Assembly: GCA_951406725.2 (NCBI GenBank)
Contig: OX597831.1
Span: forward strand, 53,382,001 to 53,446,000
Source: Octopus vulgaris
Taxonomy: Eukaryota
DNA length: 64,000 nt
Reading direction: 5' to 3'
Position numbers and translations under genes: made by a program. Positions 4,716-63,026 of the stretch are shown here, in pieces. Every line of letters starts with the position of its first letter. Position 1 is the first letter of the stretch. The notes beneath the pieces were generated by a model. The model saw nothing but the letters and a program-made list of their open reading frames with translations, was not told where the DNA came from and ran no database searches.

Positions 4716-6005
4716 TAGGGTTACCCCATAAATAATGCAGTTTTTTCAATTGCATGAACTAAAAGTCAGAGGGGGACGGGATAAACTACCTGCATCAACT
4801 TGCTGTAAAAGCAGGAAGTAATTTTACCATGTATTTATTCTTAGTGCAAGTTTTGAAGAATGCAGTTCGATTTTAACAGTTATTTTTTCAAAGCTATAAT
4901 GGAAGTGACAAAGGAGCATATTCAGCATATTTTGCTTCATGATTTCAGTAAAGATGACAACAAAACAGAAAGTGAGAGAAACATTAATGCAGTATATGGG
5001 GATCAGATAATAAGTGTAAGTCAGTATCAACAATGGTTCCTGAAATTCCGAGCTGGAAACTACAACCTAGATCTGTAGAGCTTGACGAGGACGTCCTGCA
5101 AACCCTGGTAGCACAAAATCCCATTGTAACTGTTGAGGAACTAGCAGAGAAGCTTGGATTTGGTCATTCAACCATTCATCAACACCTGTATGCCATTAGA
5201 AAAGTCAACAAATTGGGTCAATGGGTTTCTCACAAACTTCCCAAGTCTAATCATGTGCAGAGAGTTAATGTGTGCCCTTCTATGTTGTCACGTCTCACAA
5301 ATGAACCTTTTGGGACCAAATAGTAACTGGTGATGAGAAACGGGTTCTCTATAAAACTGTCAAGTGCCAAAGACAGTAGATAGGGAAAGGAGAAACACCA
5401 GCACCCTAGGCTAAAGGCCTTCACCCACGTAAGGTGTTATTATTTGTTTGGTGGGAAATGAAAGGTTTAATCCACTTTGAACTTTTACACCCAAACCAAA
5501 CAATAACAAAGGAGGTCTACTGCAAGCAGCTTGAGTGGCTTAAGTCAGCACTAGAAGAAAAATGACCATCTTTGGTTTTAAGACAAAAGGTATTCTTCCA
5601 GCAGGATAATGCTCAGCCACATACAGTGAGGATGACATTCCAAAGGCTGGAGCAGTTTGAATGGGAAATGATGCACCACCCACCATATTCACTGGACATT
5701 GCCCCATCTGATTATCATTTATTCTGCAATCTTCAAAATCATTTGGATGGAAAATATATGAATTCTGTAGATGAGGTCAGAACAGTGCTTGAAGAGTATT
5801 TTTTGTCATGGACAAGAGAATTTTGGAAGAGGGGCTTTGCAAGTCTACCAGATAGATGGAAAAGCATTGTAGAAAATGAAGGAGGGTATATTTTAGATTT
5901 AAAAGAAAAACTTAATTTTTTAACTTAAAAACTTAATAACAAAATCTTAATTTTGAAAAACCAAATTTGTATAAAAAAAGCCACATTAGTTATGGGATGA
6001 CCCAA
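4716..6005 (+). mobile_element. Full-length defective mariner (DD34D) transposon, copy 1
   Basis: About 1290 bp with imperfect ~28-bp TIRs and TA flanks. Transposase fragments WVSHKL, TGDEK, QDNAQPH and HPPYSLDIAPSDYHLF are broken by stops and frameshifts. Confidence 0.93.
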
Positions 6006-15060: not shown

Positions 15061-15220
15061 CTGCTATAGGATCCATTGATTCTCTGCCATTAGGTGAAAG
15101 CCCTGATAAAGTAGATCCTCCAGGTGGTATATGCATGTTAGCTCTCCTAGAACGAGTGCTTCCAACACCCCGTGCTGGATGAGGTATTCGTCTTACATGC
15201 CTCATTCCACTTGACTCTTC
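15061..15220 (-). CDS. KCMF1: KCMF1 exon 5 (later exons not found in window)
   Basis: Follows an AC acceptor, 160 nt. Encodes EESSGMRHVRRIPHPARGVGSTRSRRANMHIPPGGSTLSGLSPNGRESMDPIA, then G|GTTTGT donor. Matches the KCMF1 RHVRR and MDPIAE motifs. Confidence 0.92.
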
Positions 15221-18200
15221 GTAAGAAAAAAGTTAAGGACAAATACATCCAAGAAGGAGTACAAGAAATATAACAAATTTTGGAGATGATTTTTTTAAAA
15301 GAAAGAAACCAGACATTTTAATAGTAGATGAACCTTAAGGTGGCAAGCTGGTAGAAATCTGACATTTTGTCTGCCTTTATGTTCTGAGTTCAAATTCTGC
15401 CAAGATGGACTTTGCCTTTCATTCCTTTGAGGTCAATAAAATAAGTACCAGTTGAACTGGGTTGATGTTAACTTAACCCCTCCTCAAAACTTGCTGACCT
15501 TGAGCCAAAATTTGAAACGAATATTAGATAAATCTGTGTTTTATTTTCAAACAATATGCATGCATATTGCCACTGTTGGTGCATTTGGTTACATTCCTGG
15601 CAATAATGCATTTTCTGAAGAAATAATGGTTTATGTTCTTCTTAAGTAGTTAATGTGTGATGGTATAAACTTGTATTTTATCATGACATCAATGTGAGCA
15701 ACGCAAGGAATGTGAATGAAGCAAAGAGCAACAAAAAGCAATTAATATTTTATCAATGAACGTTAACAATGCAAATGTCACAAGAGGGAAGTCAGTCAAC
15801 TGCAGAAGACATTACAATAACAACCAAGAGACTCTAGATGGTTACCAAACATGCTATAAATAACAGCTTTCTTTAGACCAACTGCCTTAAAAAAGGAAGG
15901 ACACACTAGTTATGTGGTTGTAGATAAAATATGTTGAAAGAAACAGAAAAAAAATAGTTGCAATTGGACAGCATTCAGATGTGCAATCACCAACAGCCAT
16001 ATCTGTTCAATCTGTAAACAAGTGGTTCCTGCTTTGGTTCTACTTCATGACACCTTGGGCAGGTGTCTATTTTAATTTTTGGTTGATCAATGTGTTGAAT
16101 GGATTTAGTAGACAGGAACGTGAAAACACATCATCAGTATCTGCATGTGTGTGCTTGTATTTGTCTTCACTGATATTGTTTGAGCACAGATTCAACATGC
16201 AAAGAATGCAGTCAGCACAGCTAGAATACCTTTGATCATATGTCTGCTCAATCAGGGATGACATGAAGCTAAATAACTGCCAGTAACACAAAATATAATC
16301 AACATCAGAACCAATGAGAGAGAGAGCCTTTATGTTGTCATTCAAATGGTTAAATATGGATGTTGAACTTACATCAAATCACCCTCTAAAAGCTTAAAAA
16401 GGAAAAAGAGATATTGGATAATGGAGTCCTAGCTACACACTGACACTATTTGAAATAAAATTTAAGCTGGTACTGGCTGACAAACTTTTCAATACAAGTC
16501 TGCTCAATCAAGAGTCAACATTAAATGCTGAGATTGTTTGGTAGAATTCTATGGTAAGATGTTCTTGTTGCCAACCCTTACATGTTTTTCAAGTAAGGTA
16601 CTTATTTAACTGGCCCTTCTTTGCATGTTGGATTACTTGGCTGCAAGATTTTGTTTATGAAGGACATAAATGCAAAAGCGAGACAATACAGGAAAACAAA
16701 CATTCGGACACACATACTGGTGCAGGCATGGCCATATGGTTAAGAAATTTGCTTAGGAGCTACATGGACACTGTTGACTGACTGGAGTCTTGTACTTTCC
16801 CTTTGTGAGAGTTATCTGGTTGATGGAAACTAAAAGAAACTCATTGTTTGTGTATATACTAGACTTGGTGTTAGGAAGAGTAATCATTCACAGAGACCAC
16901 ACCAAAGCTAACATGGGAGCTTGTTGTAGTCTTGGAAAATGAACATTAAATGATAATGAATATAGTGTCTGAGGAATGAGTGAGGGTAAGTTTCCTGTTG
17001 TCCTGACATGGATGCATTAATTGTAAATGAAAGTTACCATCATCCAACCACTGAGCTGTTCACTGTTTGAAAGGACCAGGGGAAATATTACTTTACTTGG
17101 AAACTGATGAGGGCTGGTAAGAGACGGAGCATCTAGCTTCATGCACCTCATCACTGCTAGTTTACTTCCGACTCCACCTAAATGTCAATAACTATGTAGC
17201 TCCTTTACAAGAAGGCCCTGCTCTTCACCCACACCCCTATCTCTTAGTATAAAACTGTCTACACTTCCTGCTTCCACTGGGATTTGTAGTCTTGCAAGCT
17301 GCATGGTGACAACTAGTACTGGTGGCATGAAAAGAAGCCCAGTAAAGTGGTTGGAGTTAGGAAATTCAATCAGCTGTAGAAAGCATGCCAAAGCAGTACT
17401 TAGACCCCTAATATCCCGTCAAATCATCAAACCCATGCTAGCAAGGAACATGGACAATAAATGACGATTGTAGCTGTTAGTGGTGGCCTTAGTAGAGGTG
17501 GGCAAAAGCTGACACAACGACACAAAAACAGACCAGGTAATACTGCAAACTGAAGTGTATAGTTTGGTCTTCAACAAAACAGATGCACAGTATATAGAGA
17601 GCACCAAATCTGGGGATGGCCTTAATCATTTAACAGGCCACACAATTGATAACTGATAGCAATTTAACCATTTAGCATTTAAACTGGCTCAAATATTGTA
17701 CTTGCTTTACGTTCAAACTGGCCAGATCTGGCATCTCACAGTTACCTATACGGTCATTCTAAAAATAAACAATCACATTATCAAAATCTCAAAGCTATAA
17801 GAAATGTTAGTTTGTAGCAGAGTTTGACACTAACGTTAGAATAAGGGGATAGGTATTATTAGCAAAGTATTGCAATTAGAGTCAAGAATGGAGCTAACAA
17901 GTAGAGTAAACTAAAATCAGTATTGTTTGAAAGAACCTTAGTAAAGATTCTTTGCTAATAGGAGTGGACACAGGTCATACAACTATGAATGTTTGAAGTT
18001 TATTATGAATGAATGATAGACTGAGTGCCATCTAGCTGAAAATAAGAAGCATGAATCTGTTCAGTGTAATCTTTTGAATGTGAGGGGGAGATGAGATAAT
18101 GTATTCAGGTTGGAATGTTTCGAGCTGGTGATTGAATGTAACTGAAAGTGAATTTATATAAGACAGCTAAAAAGATACATTTCAAAGTTGTCAAGTGAGC

Positions 18201-18388
18201 AGAAAAAAAATAACATGATTATGGAGATAAAAGATACAATTCAAAATGAATTTCAAAAAGAAATTAAAAATGTAACCATTTTTTCAGTTAATTAAACTGA
18301 GTTTTTACTTTTAGAAAAAGTTTAAAAAACTTGTTATACAGAAAAAAAAAAAAGTTTTTGCAGTAGCTGGACAATATGAAAAGGATAT
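15221..18388 (-). other. U12-type (minor spliceosome) AT-AC intron, KCMF1 intron 4
   Basis: 5' end ATATCCTTTT; branch site TCCTTAAC at 15232-15239; 3' end TTTTTTCTTAC. Splicing keeps the reading frame (REF|EESSG). Confidence 0.93.
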
Positions 18389-18490
18389 AAATTCTCTTGG
18401 TGTTCTGTGTTCTAATGTGAGGTGTGCAGCAAAGTCATCAGTTACATGGTTAGGATCCCCACCAGGCAATGCAGCACATATTGGACAAAC
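18389..18490 (-). CDS. KCMF1: KCMF1 exon 4
   Basis: ttgaag| acceptor, 102 nt. Encodes VCPICAALPGGDPNHVTDDFAAHLTLEHRTPREF and ends at the U12-type donor ATATCCTTT. Confidence 0.95.
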
Positions 18491-19689: not shown

Positions 19690-19829
19690 TACTTCTGTAG
19701 AGGCGTCTGCATGCTCTGATGTGACATGCTCCTGTAAAGTTGCTTCTGTAAACCCCATTTTGCCACAATATGGACAAGTGAAAGACTGGGCCTGCTCGGC
19801 AGGCAATGCTTCTCCCCCATAATACAGTT
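19690..19829 (-). CDS. KCMF1: KCMF1 exon 3, C2H2/Di19-type zinc finger
   Basis: tttcag| acceptor and |GTTAGT donor, 140 nt. Encodes ELYYGGEALPAEQAQSFTCPYCGKMGFTEATLQEHVTSEHADASTEV. Confidence 0.95.
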
Positions 19830-21104: not shown

Positions 21105-22367
21105 GTGTGTAATTCCATAAATAATGTGGTTTTCTCAACTGCATGGACTAAAAATTGAAGGAGGAGAGGATAAACTACCTGCATCAACTTATGAAAGCAG
21201 GTAGTAATTTTACCTTGTATTGATTTTTAGTGCAAGTTTTGAAGAGTGCAGTTTGATTTTAACAGTTATTTTTTCAAAGCTATAATGGAAATGACAAAGG
21301 AGCATATTCGGCATATTTTGCTTTATGAGTTCAATAAAGGCAACAACACAATGGAAAGTATGAGAAATATTAAAGCAGTATATGGGGATCAGACAATAAG
21401 CATAAGCCAGTGTCAACAGTGGTTCCAGAAATTTTGAGCAGGAAACTACAGACTAGAAGATGAGCCTTGTCCTGGAAGATCTGTAGAGCATGACGAGGAT
21501 GTCCTGCAAACCTTGGTGGAACAAAATCCCATCATAACTGTTGAGGAACTGGCAGAGAAGATTGGATTTGGTCATTCAACCATTCATCGATATCTGCGTG
21601 CCATTGGAAAAGTCAGCAAATTAGGTCAATGGGTTCCTCACAAACTTTCCAAGTCTAAACATGTGCAGAGAGTGAATGTGTGCTCTTCTTTGCTGTCACA
21701 TCTCACAAATGAACCTTTTTTGGACTGAATAGTGACTGTTGAAGAGAAATGAGTTCTCTATGAAAATGTCAAGCACCAAGGAAATTGGGTAGGGAAAGGA
21801 GTAACATTGGCACTCCAGGCTAAAGAAGGTTTTCCCCCGTGTAAGGAGTTGTTATCTGTTTGGTGGGTTACGAAGGGTTTAGTCCATTTTGAACATTTAA
21901 AGCTTAACCAAATGGTAAGAAAGGAGATCTACTGCAAGCAGCTTGAGCGGCTCAAGTCAGTGATTGAAGAAAAATGATCATCTTTGGTTTCAAGACAAAA
22001 GGTGCTCTTCCATCAGGATAAAGCTTGGCTACATACAGTAAGGATGACAGTTTGAATGGGAAACTATGCCCCACCCACCATATTCGCTGGATATTACCCC
22101 ATCTGATCATCATTTATTCTGTAGTATTCAAAATCATTTGCACAGAAAATATATGAATTTTGTAGATGAGGTCAGAACAGTCCTGGAGGAGTATTTTTCA
22201 TCACAGCAAGTGAATTTTGGAAGAGGGGCCTTGCAAGTCTACCAGATAGATGGAAGAGCATTGTAGAAAATGGAGGAGAGTATATTTTAGATTGAAAAAG
22301 AAATTTATTTTAATTTTGAAAAATAAAAGAAGTATTAAAAAACCGCATAATTTATGGGATAACCCAA
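21105..22367 (+). mobile_element. Defective mariner transposon, copy 2 of the same family
   Basis: Colinear with copy 1, with WVPHKL and HPPYSLDITPSD motifs. Right TIR ...tttatgggataacccaa|TA; left TIR eroded. Confidence 0.92.
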
Positions 22368-27753: not shown

Positions 27754-27921
27754 CAAAATCAGCCTTAGTAAGTATACATTGGACTGGGTGATCTGTAGTA
27801 TGTCTGGTTGTGGTGGCACCTGCCTCATAACAATTTGCACAGAGATCATAATCATAGCAGACAAGACATTTGTATCTTTTCCCACGAAAGTTGCCCTTCA
27901 AACAGGAATCACAGCTCACAC
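27754..27921 (-). CDS. KCMF1: KCMF1 exon 2, ZZ-type zinc finger
   Basis: tgtag| acceptor and G|GTACTA donor, 168 nt. Encodes VSCDSCLKGNFRGKRYKCLVCYDYDLCANCYEAGATTTRHTTDHPVQCILTKADF. Confidence 0.96.
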
Positions 27922-39366: not shown

Positions 39367-39382
39367 CCTCATGGCGAGACAT
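39367..39382 (-). CDS. KCMF1: KCMF1 coding exon 1 (MSRHE-G)
   Basis: Minus strand reads ATG TCT CGC CAT GAG G|GTGAGT: the conserved MSRHEG N-terminus followed by a strong GT donor. Phase 1 joins exon 2 to give GVSCD. Confidence 0.93.
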
Positions 39383-52309: not shown

Positions 52310-52680
52310 TATATTTGTGTTGTAAGAAACTTGCTATGCAACCACATGGTTTTGGGTTCAGACCCACTGCGTGGAACCTTGGGCAAGTGTCTTCTACTGT
52401 AGCCTTGCATTGACCAAAGCTTTGCGAGTATATTTGGTTGCCACAAACTGAAAGGAACCCATCATATATAATGTGTGTGTGTGTGTTTGTACTCCACCAT
52501 TGCTTGATAATTGGTGTTGGTTTGTTTACATCCCCATAACTTAGTGATTCAGTCAAAGGGACTGGTAGAATAAGTACTAGGCTTAAAAAATAAGTCCTGG
52601 GGTTGATTTCTTTGACTAAAATCCTTCAAGGCAGTGCCCCAGCATGGCCATAGTCAAATGACTGAAACAAGTAAAATATA
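52310..52680 (+). mobile_element. OR-like SINE
   Basis: Same head (GGTTCAGACCC, ACCTTGGGCAAGTGTC) and same tail (GTCAAATGACTGAAACAAGTAAAA) as the 60128 copy. Confidence 0.75.
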
Positions 52681-53350
52681 AAAGATAATACAATAAACTG
52701 TACATTTTTTTTTTTTTTTAATGTTCTAAAATGCTGGTGTAACTAAAAGTAAATATTACAAGTGATTAACAATGTAAAAAGTGATGTCGGATTTCTAGAT
52801 TTATGAGACATGAAGATTTAACAAGTGCCCTTAAACAATGTCATAAATTGGAATTGTTGTTTATGTGTGATATTAAATTTTAGCAATAAAATCTGGTTTA
52901 TAAAACTGGTATGTAAATGTTTTTTTTTTCTTTTATTATATTAATGAACCAAGACAGCAAGGTGGCGGTCATTAAACATGCTGAACCATATGCTTAGTGT
53001 CATTTTGTATGGCTTTATGTTCTGAGTTTGAATTCCACTGAGGTCAACTTTGCTTTTTCTCCTCTTGGTGTTGATAAATTAAGTACCAGTTGAGTACAGG
53101 AGTCAATGTAACTGACTTGCCCCTCTCCACATATCTAATTCATTTTTCTTTTGTATTGTCATTTGACTGTGGCCATGCTGGAGCACCATCTTTAATCAAA
53201 CAAATCGACCCCATGACTTATTCTTTGTAAGCCTAATACTTATTCTATGGGTCTGTTTTGCGGAACCACCAAGTTACAGGGACGTAAACACACCAACATC
53301 GATTGTCAAGTGATAAGAGACAGACAAATACATACATATATGTGTGTGTT

Positions 53351-56183: not shown

Positions 56184-56895
56184 GTAAGTTGGTTATATTG
56201 TCACTACCTAAATTTATTGCACACTTGGTGAATGTGTGCATGTATGTGTTTGTGAGTGTGTGTGTATTTGTGTGCATATGTCTGAGTATGTATATGCACA
56301 TCTGTGCTTTTGTGTATGTATGCACAACTGTCTGTGTGCATGTCTGCCTGTGTGCACGTCTCATGTTTGCATGCATGCATGTCTCTTTACATATATCTAT
56401 TTCTTTACTACCCACAAGGTGCTAAACACAGAAAGGTCAGACAAACAGATTAAATCGACCCCAGTGCGTAACTGGTACTTAATTTATCGACCCCGAAAGG
56501 ATGAAAGGCAAAGTTGACCTCGGCGGAATTTTAACTCAGAATGTGAAAACAGACGAAATACCGCTAAACATTCTGTCCGGTGTGCTAACGATTCTGCCAG
56601 CTCACCACTTTACATATATCTGTCTGCACATGTCAGTACATGTGGTGTTTGTGTGTAACTGTCTGTGAATGTGTCTGGCTAGCTGTCTGTATGTTTGTGT
56701 CTCTGTGAATGTGTCCATGCAGTTGTTTGTCAGTCAGTCTTTTAATTGGAGATGAACAACAGGAATAGTTAATTGTGGTGAAACTCAATAGAATGAAATA
56801 AAGTATTGTATTGTATTCTCAATTTTCCTCTTTCATATTAAATGGTAATAATATTCATTAATATTGAAAAGAAAAATTTTATTTGTTAATTACAG

Positions 56896-59874: not shown

Positions 59875-60127
59875 GTAAGTTTTGACTGATCACTTCATTA
59901 GAAACAATTTCTTGCGATATTCTTGTAATAAAGATTACATATTCTAAAAGGTCTATCCTCTTTACAACATTAATCATCATCATCATCATTATTGTTGTTG
60001 CCGTTTTGTTTTAAATCTGCTTTCTCCATAGTGGCATGGGTTGGATGAAACACTTTGAGACAGTATTCTACAACTGGAGACCCTTGACTCTTGTTTACTT
60101 AGAAGTAGTCTTCACTTGTCAAACCAC

Positions 60128-60312
60128 TCTTTTACTTGTTTCAGTCATTTGACTGTAGCCATGCTGAAGCACCGCCTTTAGTCGAAGAAATCGATCCCAG
60201 GACTTATTCTTTGCAAGCCTAGTACTTATTTTGTTGGTCACTTTTGCTGAACTGCTAAGTGATGGGGACGTAAACACACCAGCATCGGTTGTCAAGCGAT
60301 GTTGGGGGACAA

Positions 60313-61419: not shown

Positions 61420-62459
61420 GTAAAAAGAAAATTACATACAATATCCAATGTAATCTTTTGTTTTTGAAAACAGTGGCTGGAAATGGATTTCACTGTTATT
61501 TCTGACATATATGACAACCATTAAAGGTTCCTTCATAAGCATCAGTAGATGATTATGATGGATTTGTTTTTTTTTCTATTATTCTGGCGTGAAGAGAGAC
61601 AACTTTGAAAATATTATGTCTTGCCATTATTGTATAAGTATCGCTTTGCAACAAACGTATTGGTCCTTGGGCTCCTTTAGAAGTGTTCACACTGTAGAAT
61701 ATAGCAGTGTGATTTAACAAAGAATCAATGCTGATGTGACTTAAAAGTGAAACAATTCTGTTGTGATTTGACTACCTTCGCAGTCACAGGTCACACATAA
61801 GTCATACAGATCAACAGTGTATTTGTTGAGAGTTCCTGCTATGATGTAGCTATTGCTAAGACATTTTTAACACTACTTATAAGACAAGAAATTTACTATC
61901 TGTAGAGACCCTGAAACCCTTGTATATTCCCTGTCAGCAAAGCCAGATCGATACATTATCAAGAAATGAAAATACTTCAACTATTAGTTTCTATTTACTT
62001 TCCCCGGCTCTACAGTAATAAACACAAATTTCTAGTATTCAAAGCAAGTACAATGTATTATCCTATTTTTAAAAGCTTTTCAAATTGGTTACTACATATT
62101 CTTGATTCTAGGAGAGTACTCGTGTAACAAGAAGCTTCATACTGTGCACTACTTTGCAAATAATTTGTCTCTAGTACCATGATCCAGATTGAACTGAGGG
62201 ATTTCTCGTTTCTACCATGATAGCAACAAATTTTTCTGTGCACAGGACAATTATGCTGTTATAAAAAGAAAGAGTATATTGATTCTTAAAGCTTCTCGTC
62301 TGGTTTCCCTGTACAGTTGACAATCACTTGAATTTGAAAGGCAAATTTGAATGGATATATTATTTTAGAAATTACAGACCACAGTGATTTCTCTAGTGTG
62401 TTTATTGCATAAACACTGCAATGTGCCATTTACAACTATGGTTAGATGCAGCAACTTAA

Positions 62460-63026
62460 AGCCACACAGCCTATTATATTCCTACCGCTCTATGTCATGC
62501 TGGTGAGACCCATATTGGAGTACGGGATTCAAGCTTCTTCTCCTTATCTCCTCAAAGACATACAGCATCTCAAAAGAGTCCAGAAGCTGGCTACCCGCAT
62601 GGTTCTTGGTCTCAAGAATTTGTCTTATGAAGAAAGGCTGAAGATGCTCGACCTTTATTCTCTAGAAAAATGATGACGCCGTGGTGATTTCATTCTTGCT
62701 CACAACATCATAAGCGGAAAGTGTAACCTCTCGAAAGAGCTGTTCTTCACTCCTGCTCCAGAGCGTTGGCTGTGGGGTCACTCCGAAAAGCTCTATCTGC
62801 GACGATTTCATCTCAATCGAAGGAGAGGGGCTTTCTCTATCTGGGTTGCGGATCTGTGGAATAAGCTGCCGGACGAGATAGTGAAGATGCTGATGATCGC
62901 TCAGTTCAAAGTCTCCCTTGACCACAAATGGCCTGAACTCTTTGCATGAACACCACCCTGTACATAACTCCATGTCCCCCTACATGGCCTTGCTTTTTGA
63001 GCCAAAAAATTAACTTAACTTAACTT
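62460..63026 (+). mobile_element. 5'-truncated CR1-clade LINE 3' end (ORF2 C-terminus plus tail)
   Basis: LYVMLVRPILEYG...LKRVQKLATRMV...LSYEERLKMLDLYSLEK**RRGD...LWNKLPDEIV, followed by a 3' UTR ending in (TTAAC)n. Confidence 0.88.

Follow-up and report, generated by a model that had tools for sequence, protein, structure and literature searches.

KCMF1 carries a minor intron that has been catalogued in human, mouse and fly. The human intron, for which a mouse counterpart is also listed, occupies chr2:85043666-85046103 (entries in PMC6717393 and PMC8280824); according to the table of PMC8280824 its donor follows the codons R-D-L, its acceptor precedes D-E and its ends are AT-AT. The fly intron is of the U12 type with AT-AC ends and an acceptor before D-E-P (entries in PMC7644725 and in Table 2 of PMC2831892). 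PMC2831892, in the part that deals with this gene, describes CG11984/KCMF1 as having an AT-AC U12 intron conserved in human and gives the human intron the same subtype, a statement that the later table of PMC8280824 does not bear out to the letter. Functional data are also available for these introns. Retention of the human intron rose from 0.043 to 0.42 after 48 h of CENATAC depletion, with an mRNA log2 change of ~0.05, and ZRSR2-mutant cells showed a rise from 0.08 to 0.45 (values from PMC8280824); the fly intron was responsive to U6atac loss (as given in PMC2952598) and was still partly spliced in minor-spliceosome mutants (as given in PMC7644725).

Here we describe the corresponding intron in a window of 64,000 nucleotides from Octopus vulgaris, by which we mean the whole stretch of DNA analysed. 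With high confidence, intron 4 of its single KCMF1 gene is an AT-AC intron orthologous to the minor intron catalogued in human and fly; transcript contigs lack it exactly, and its removal is probably the work of the minor spliceosome.

The KCMF1 gene of the window and its fourth intron

The minus strand of the window holds five KCMF1 exons (Table 1) that together form 195 stop-free codons, with the in-frame junction REF|EESSG proposed by the initial annotation at codons 140-147. As the first four exons total 426 nt, intron 4 is in phase 0 and follows codon 142. All 195 residues are identical in four public proteins labelled Octopus vulgaris or O. sinensis, in agreement with the mollusc host that had been claimed. 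Exon 4, the counterpart of human KCMF1 residues 109-142, aligned with residues 109-141 (E 4e-18) and exon 5 with residues 143-200 (E 9e-12); PF05605 was found on the gene, and PF00569 together with PF05605 on the identical public proteins, so that the ZZ domain, the Di19-type zinc-binding domain and the collinear sequence of a KCMF1 orthologue are all present. Exon 5 has one match in the whole genome. Two candidates for further KCMF1 copies were rejected, L002 having no tblastn match and L003 just 27% identity to KCMF1. Exon 6 was not recovered by motif scans of the window; the remaining exons lie past the window start on L016 and L017, with the next one ~5.4 kb away.

The window also contains other features. 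High-copy repeats within intron 4 (15363-15520, ~17400-17550 and ~17660-17800), which attracted thousands of contigs, are presumably short interspersed elements. Broken reading frames at 4988-5925 and 21438-22263 on the plus strand resemble what we take to be decayed mariner-type transposases, and a fragment near 62446-62946 is, we assume, reverse-transcriptase-like. A second gene is likely to lie on the plus strand upstream of KCMF1, where a short exon-like stretch (~56300-56422) bears what we take to be a resemblance to dihydropteridine reductase.

Table 1. Positions of KCMF1 exons, intron 4 signals and the enclosing GT-AG pair in the window
Feature	Position	Strand	Basis
KCMF1 exon 1, coding part, 16 nt	39367..39382	-	protein identity to public models
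KCMF1 exon 2, ZZ domain, 168 nt	27754..27921	-	protein identity to public models
KCMF1 exon 3, 140 nt, GT-AG flanks	19690..19829	-	sequence and contig joints
KCMF1 exon 4, 102 nt, second zinc finger of the Di19-type zinc-binding domain	18389..18490	-	contig joint, human alignment
KCMF1 intron 4, U12-type, AT-AC, phase 0, 3168 nt	15221..18388	-	contig joint in 4/4 runs and sequence
U12-type 5' splice site ATATCCTTTT	18379..18388	-	motif, snRNA pairing prediction
U12-type branch site TCCTTAAC	15232..15239	-	motif, U12 complementarity
3' splice site AC	15221..15222	-	sequence and contig joint
KCMF1 exon 5, 160 nt, from human residue 143	15061..15220	-	contig joint, human alignment
Enclosing GT-AG pair, used by public model P0005	15215..18445	-	gene model only

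Contigs from four of four runs aligned to the window join 18389 directly to 15220 and skip 3168 bases; the runs belong to four studies and carry two organism labels. The joint has GT..AT ends on the plus strand, equivalent to AT..AC on the minus strand, and the number of letters fitting both sides is 0. Its shorter side measures 82-102 letters in the contigs of these runs, and in two of the four runs contigs span exons 3, 4 and 5. The evidence consists of assembled contigs whose RNA status is presumed, no run being recorded as RNA, and the 15 joints listed were accompanied by 63 further ones. Low-depth contigs overlie parts of intron 4, and contigs give no retention level.

The signals at the two ends of the intron were then set against chance expectation. 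Across the 64 kb window there is a single RTATCCTTT, where shuffling predicts 2.16, and there are six copies of TCCTTRAC against a predicted 4.26, so that by count over the whole window neither the donor nor the branch motif is above chance; the informative part is therefore their placement at either end of a junction that is spliced. Within intron 4 each motif is present once, at its proper end, and from composition the donor 9-mer would be expected at a given base with a frequency of 1.3e-5 and the branch 8-mer within a 15-base range with one of 2.9e-4. Between TCCTTAAC and the terminal AC lie nine bases, all pyrimidines, with no extended tract past the branch site. The candidate branch adenosines, 15234 and 15233, stand 13 and 12 nt before the last intron base, inside the 11-13 nt that the cited part of PMC3584512 gives as the optimum U12 branch distance. 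Intron 4 thus has a RTATCCTTT donor, a TCCTTRAC branch site near its 3' end and AT and AC as its real boundaries; with the exact joint in all four runs and the match to human, the original identification of a U12-type AT-AC intron in KCMF1 holds.

Minor snRNA genes above the Rfam cut-off were found in the genome for U12 (125 bits), U6atac (96.9), U11 (94.5) and U4atac (83.8), scores that speak to gene presence. Pairing of the intron 4 donor with the genome's own snRNAs was predicted at -7.1 kcal/mol for U11 and -6.9 for U6atac, against -3.4 or weaker for the other four donors of KCMF1. The branch site is complementary to U12 nt 18-24 at seven of seven positions with one bulged A, compared with 3-4 of seven in introns 1-3. 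By duplex energy with U12, intron 4 (-9.3) is indistinguishable from intron 1 (-9.6), since pyrimidine tracts also pair with this part of U12, and branch sites were for this comparison ranked by match count in place of energy. Donor and branch complementarity together set intron 4 apart among the KCMF1 introns.

Of 46 scored candidates, 43 matched U6atac, and these were scattered across many contigs. One copy (L011) is directly followed by a repeat tail that recurs in the window at 52627-52692 and 60126-60178, and another (L012) has a similar repeat tail after it. The two tailed copies, from the group L010-L012, are likely to be U6atac-retroelement chimeric copies, of a kind known from mammals (described in part of PMC4476161).

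Competing readings of the junction and public gene models

The initial annotation held that no GT-AG pair explains the junction, and none reproduces it: each in-frame pair within 60 nt of it hits a stop or alters the protein. One such pair encloses intron 4, its donor 57 nt upstream and its acceptor 6 nt downstream of those of the minor intron, and keeps the frame with the loss of 21 residues, among them the histidine pair that completes the second zinc finger. Given that public model P0005, labelled Octopus vulgaris, has a junction matching 18445..15215 exactly, the minor intron might be nested in a real, competing GT-AG intron, a twintron-like switch with an in-frame isoform lacking these residues as its product. 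U2-outside/U12-inside arrangements are known for NCBP2, PRMT1 and others (examples in PMC8329584), and human KCMF1 uses alternative donors and acceptors in ZRSR2-mutant cells (entries in PMC8280824). We nevertheless hold the nested arrangement to be unlikely. The outer join is present in one of the 111 proteins examined as against seven cephalopod-type proteins with the AT-AC join, and a join-directed search among short proteins returned it in none of 13 matches; P0005 clusters with no other protein and is unmatched among the O. sinensis isoforms, in contrast to the other four isoforms, each of which has a counterpart there; and the outer joint is absent among the 15 joints listed (63 further). 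Both outer sites look weak by eye, with a donor lacking G at -1 and +5 and a GAG acceptor two bases behind an earlier, frame-breaking AG, and weak sites that keep the frame are as expected from a predictor seeking an open frame. The P0005 junction is thus likely to be a prediction error, and we would be surprised if the outer pair yielded even a rare real isoform. Slightly less probable again is that low minor-spliceosome activity switches KCMF1 to this isoform and thereby tunes the selectivity of the UBR4 quality-control ligase; if it did so, the switched isoform would have a broken substrate-binding zinc finger and an intact UBR4 pin.

The AT-AC ends could also be processed by the major (U2) spliceosome, a reading to which the pyrimidine run before the terminal AC would lend itself, as would the 85 major AT-AC or related introns mentioned in PMC8280824 and the partial splicing of the fly intron without U12 or U6atac (passage in PMC7644725). 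It is difficult to reconcile with a full U12 donor and branch consensus that is kept in coral, mollusc, arthropod and vertebrate-like loci, or with the retention of the human orthologue upon CENATAC or ZRSR2 loss (PMC8280824, values above), and we consider it very improbable. More remote still is an artefact, arising from a processed copy, from misassembly or from a GT-AG junction aligned out of register. The support for the junction does consist entirely of contigs; however, the joint contains no ambiguous letters and recurs in four studies, the single-copy state of exon 5 means that it does not come from a processed copy, in-frame GT-AG pairs within 60 nt all stop or change the protein, and the gene is collinear with human KCMF1. 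The clean joint, the four studies and single-copy exon 5 refute this reading in substance, and removal of an AT-AC intron by the minor spliceosome remains the preferred interpretation.

The expectation that predictors confined to GT-AG would mis-model the intron was met in part: P0005 and P0008 are examples, but the majority of public models place the junction correctly. Models apparently wrong at this point are those of Lottia (P0008), Strigamia (P0010), Halocaridina (P0044) and two corals (P0064 and P0088), and because several models either translate through the intron or splice around it, it serves as a warning for annotation. Two other models, labelled Octopus bimaculoides (P0014) and Sepia pharaonis (P0110), are missing the ZZ-DZB part of KCMF1 in its entirety.

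Proposed splicing route and dependence on the minor spliceosome

By the established pathway, U11 and U12 would recognise the donor and branch site of intron 4, and U6atac would then take the place of U11 at ATATCCTTTT. U12 would pair with TCCTTAAC and bulge an adenosine 12-13 nt from the intron end, with the terminal AC selected by its distance from the branch site. Splicing of intron 4 may be relatively slow, judging from the human data. The intron falls where the folded, substrate-receptor part of the protein ends, and read-through into it adds 25 further codons before a stop; the product of a retained intron would be either destroyed by surveillance or truncated. Such a truncated protein, a hypothetical product, would keep the ZZ-DZB substrate receptor and lose the C-terminal helix by which KCMF1 is pinned into UBR4 (domain roles as set out in part of bioRxiv 10.1101/2024.12.18.629163). 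Octopus KCMF1 output is likely to depend on U11/U12, and to do so partially, given that the human intron was retained without a drop in mRNA and that splicing was partial in fly mutants.

Age of the intron and comparison with described systems

Metagenome contigs scanned with the exon 4 motif yielded 24 loci of about seven sequence types; the loci are non-independent, and the search pattern favoured close relatives. A phase-0 ATATCC donor stands at the end of exon 4 in 18 of the 24, and an AC end after a TTAAC branch site in 9/9 loci in which the acceptor was found. Six loci have no donor: L024, L030, L041 and L045 appear spliced or intronless, and L027 and L032 have lost the intron. The junction sequence encoded by one type of locus (L025) is that of proteins with the labels Oculina patagonica and Orbicella faveolata, and the U12 donor and branch consensus is kept across the coral, mollusc, arthropod and vertebrate-like loci. 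As stony-coral-type loci carry the intron, it goes back at least to the ancestor shared by corals and bilaterians, so that the ancient bilaterian intron proposed initially is indeed old, although its origin predates bilaterians. The common ancestor of corals and bilaterians is likely to have had the intron with AT-AC ends; as the ends vary within vertebrates (AT-AT in human, AT-AC in the vertebrate-like locus L036), the ancestral AC is an argument from parsimony across few lineages.

Arthropod-type KCMF1 (loci L022, L023, L033, L037, L039, L044, L029, L027 and L032; proteins P0010, P0011 and P0036-P0045) has four extra residues before the junction, ISFL or ISFV, which are the translation of a U12 donor. 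Loci of the L022 type have two intact donors 12 nt apart; at L029 and in the fly the first donor is decayed and splicing occurs at the second; and at L027 and L032 ISFL is retained where the intron is gone. From sequence comparison this looks like intron sliding via donor duplication and exonisation.

Other variation was seen at the junction. Coral KCMF1 proteins (within P0025-P0102) occur with and without a Tyr at the junction, 35 having it and 18 lacking it among the 92 proteins tallied. The last three bases of the coral intron (L025 type) are TAC, and the optional residue would follow from use of a 3' site three bases further upstream. The octopus intron likewise ends in TAC (15221-15223), and no isoform with an extra Tyr was seen. 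L024, L030 and L041 have an extra Gln at the junction, and two Patella vulgata isoforms (P0007 and P0016) have 15 extra residues exactly there, which suggests an alternative exon inside the minor intron or next to it.

The octopus KCMF1 minor intron is real, ordinary and already known. It offers little as a discovery, the intron being catalogued in human, mouse and fly and its junction already present in public octopus models; its use is as a clean positive control for minor-intron detection. Modest specialist interest lies in its reach back to corals, in a last base that varies (AC or AT), and in the arthropods, where four codons apparently derive from an old donor. A pan-eukaryote minor-intron survey includes Octopus sinensis and O. 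bimaculoides (species information in PMC10639083), and the IAOD, U12DB and Larue and Roy tables likely list the octopus intron. The papers covered by the literature search contained no description of the intron in octopus, of its state in corals or of the donor shift in arthropods, and KCMF1 gene names had no match in PMC3291851.

Compared with the described introns, that of octopus is at the same site as the human and fly KCMF1 minor intron: when the published flanking codons are placed on the alignment, its position and phase in the aligned protein match theirs, which was the comparison of intron positions put forward initially. The accompanying statement that KCMF1 orthologues, including CG11984, carry a U12 intron was right as to human and fly orthology, with the qualification that the human ends are AT-AT and not AT-AC. 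The human and mouse intron shares with the octopus one the codon boundary 142/143, phase 0, the donor ATATCCTTTT, the A-type class of minor intron and the 11 nt from the branch-site C to the exon. The human intron differs in its AT-AT ends, its branch site TTTCTTAAC and its length of 2438 nt, compared with AT-AC ends, the consensus TCCTTAAC and 3168 nt in octopus. Drosophila CG11984/Kcmf1 is alike in its AT-AC ends, its U12 donor and branch site and an acceptor directly before D-E-P; it differs by four extra codons (I-S-F-L) before the donor, in DNA that resembles a decayed U12 donor, and these codons are absent in octopus, as they are in human and coral. Finally, the nested U2/U12 introns of prospero, SRSF10 and NCBP2 (cases in PMC8329584) resemble this locus in that a GT-AG pair encloses a U12 intron and the frame is kept, but the outer pair in octopus is known from one gene model alone.
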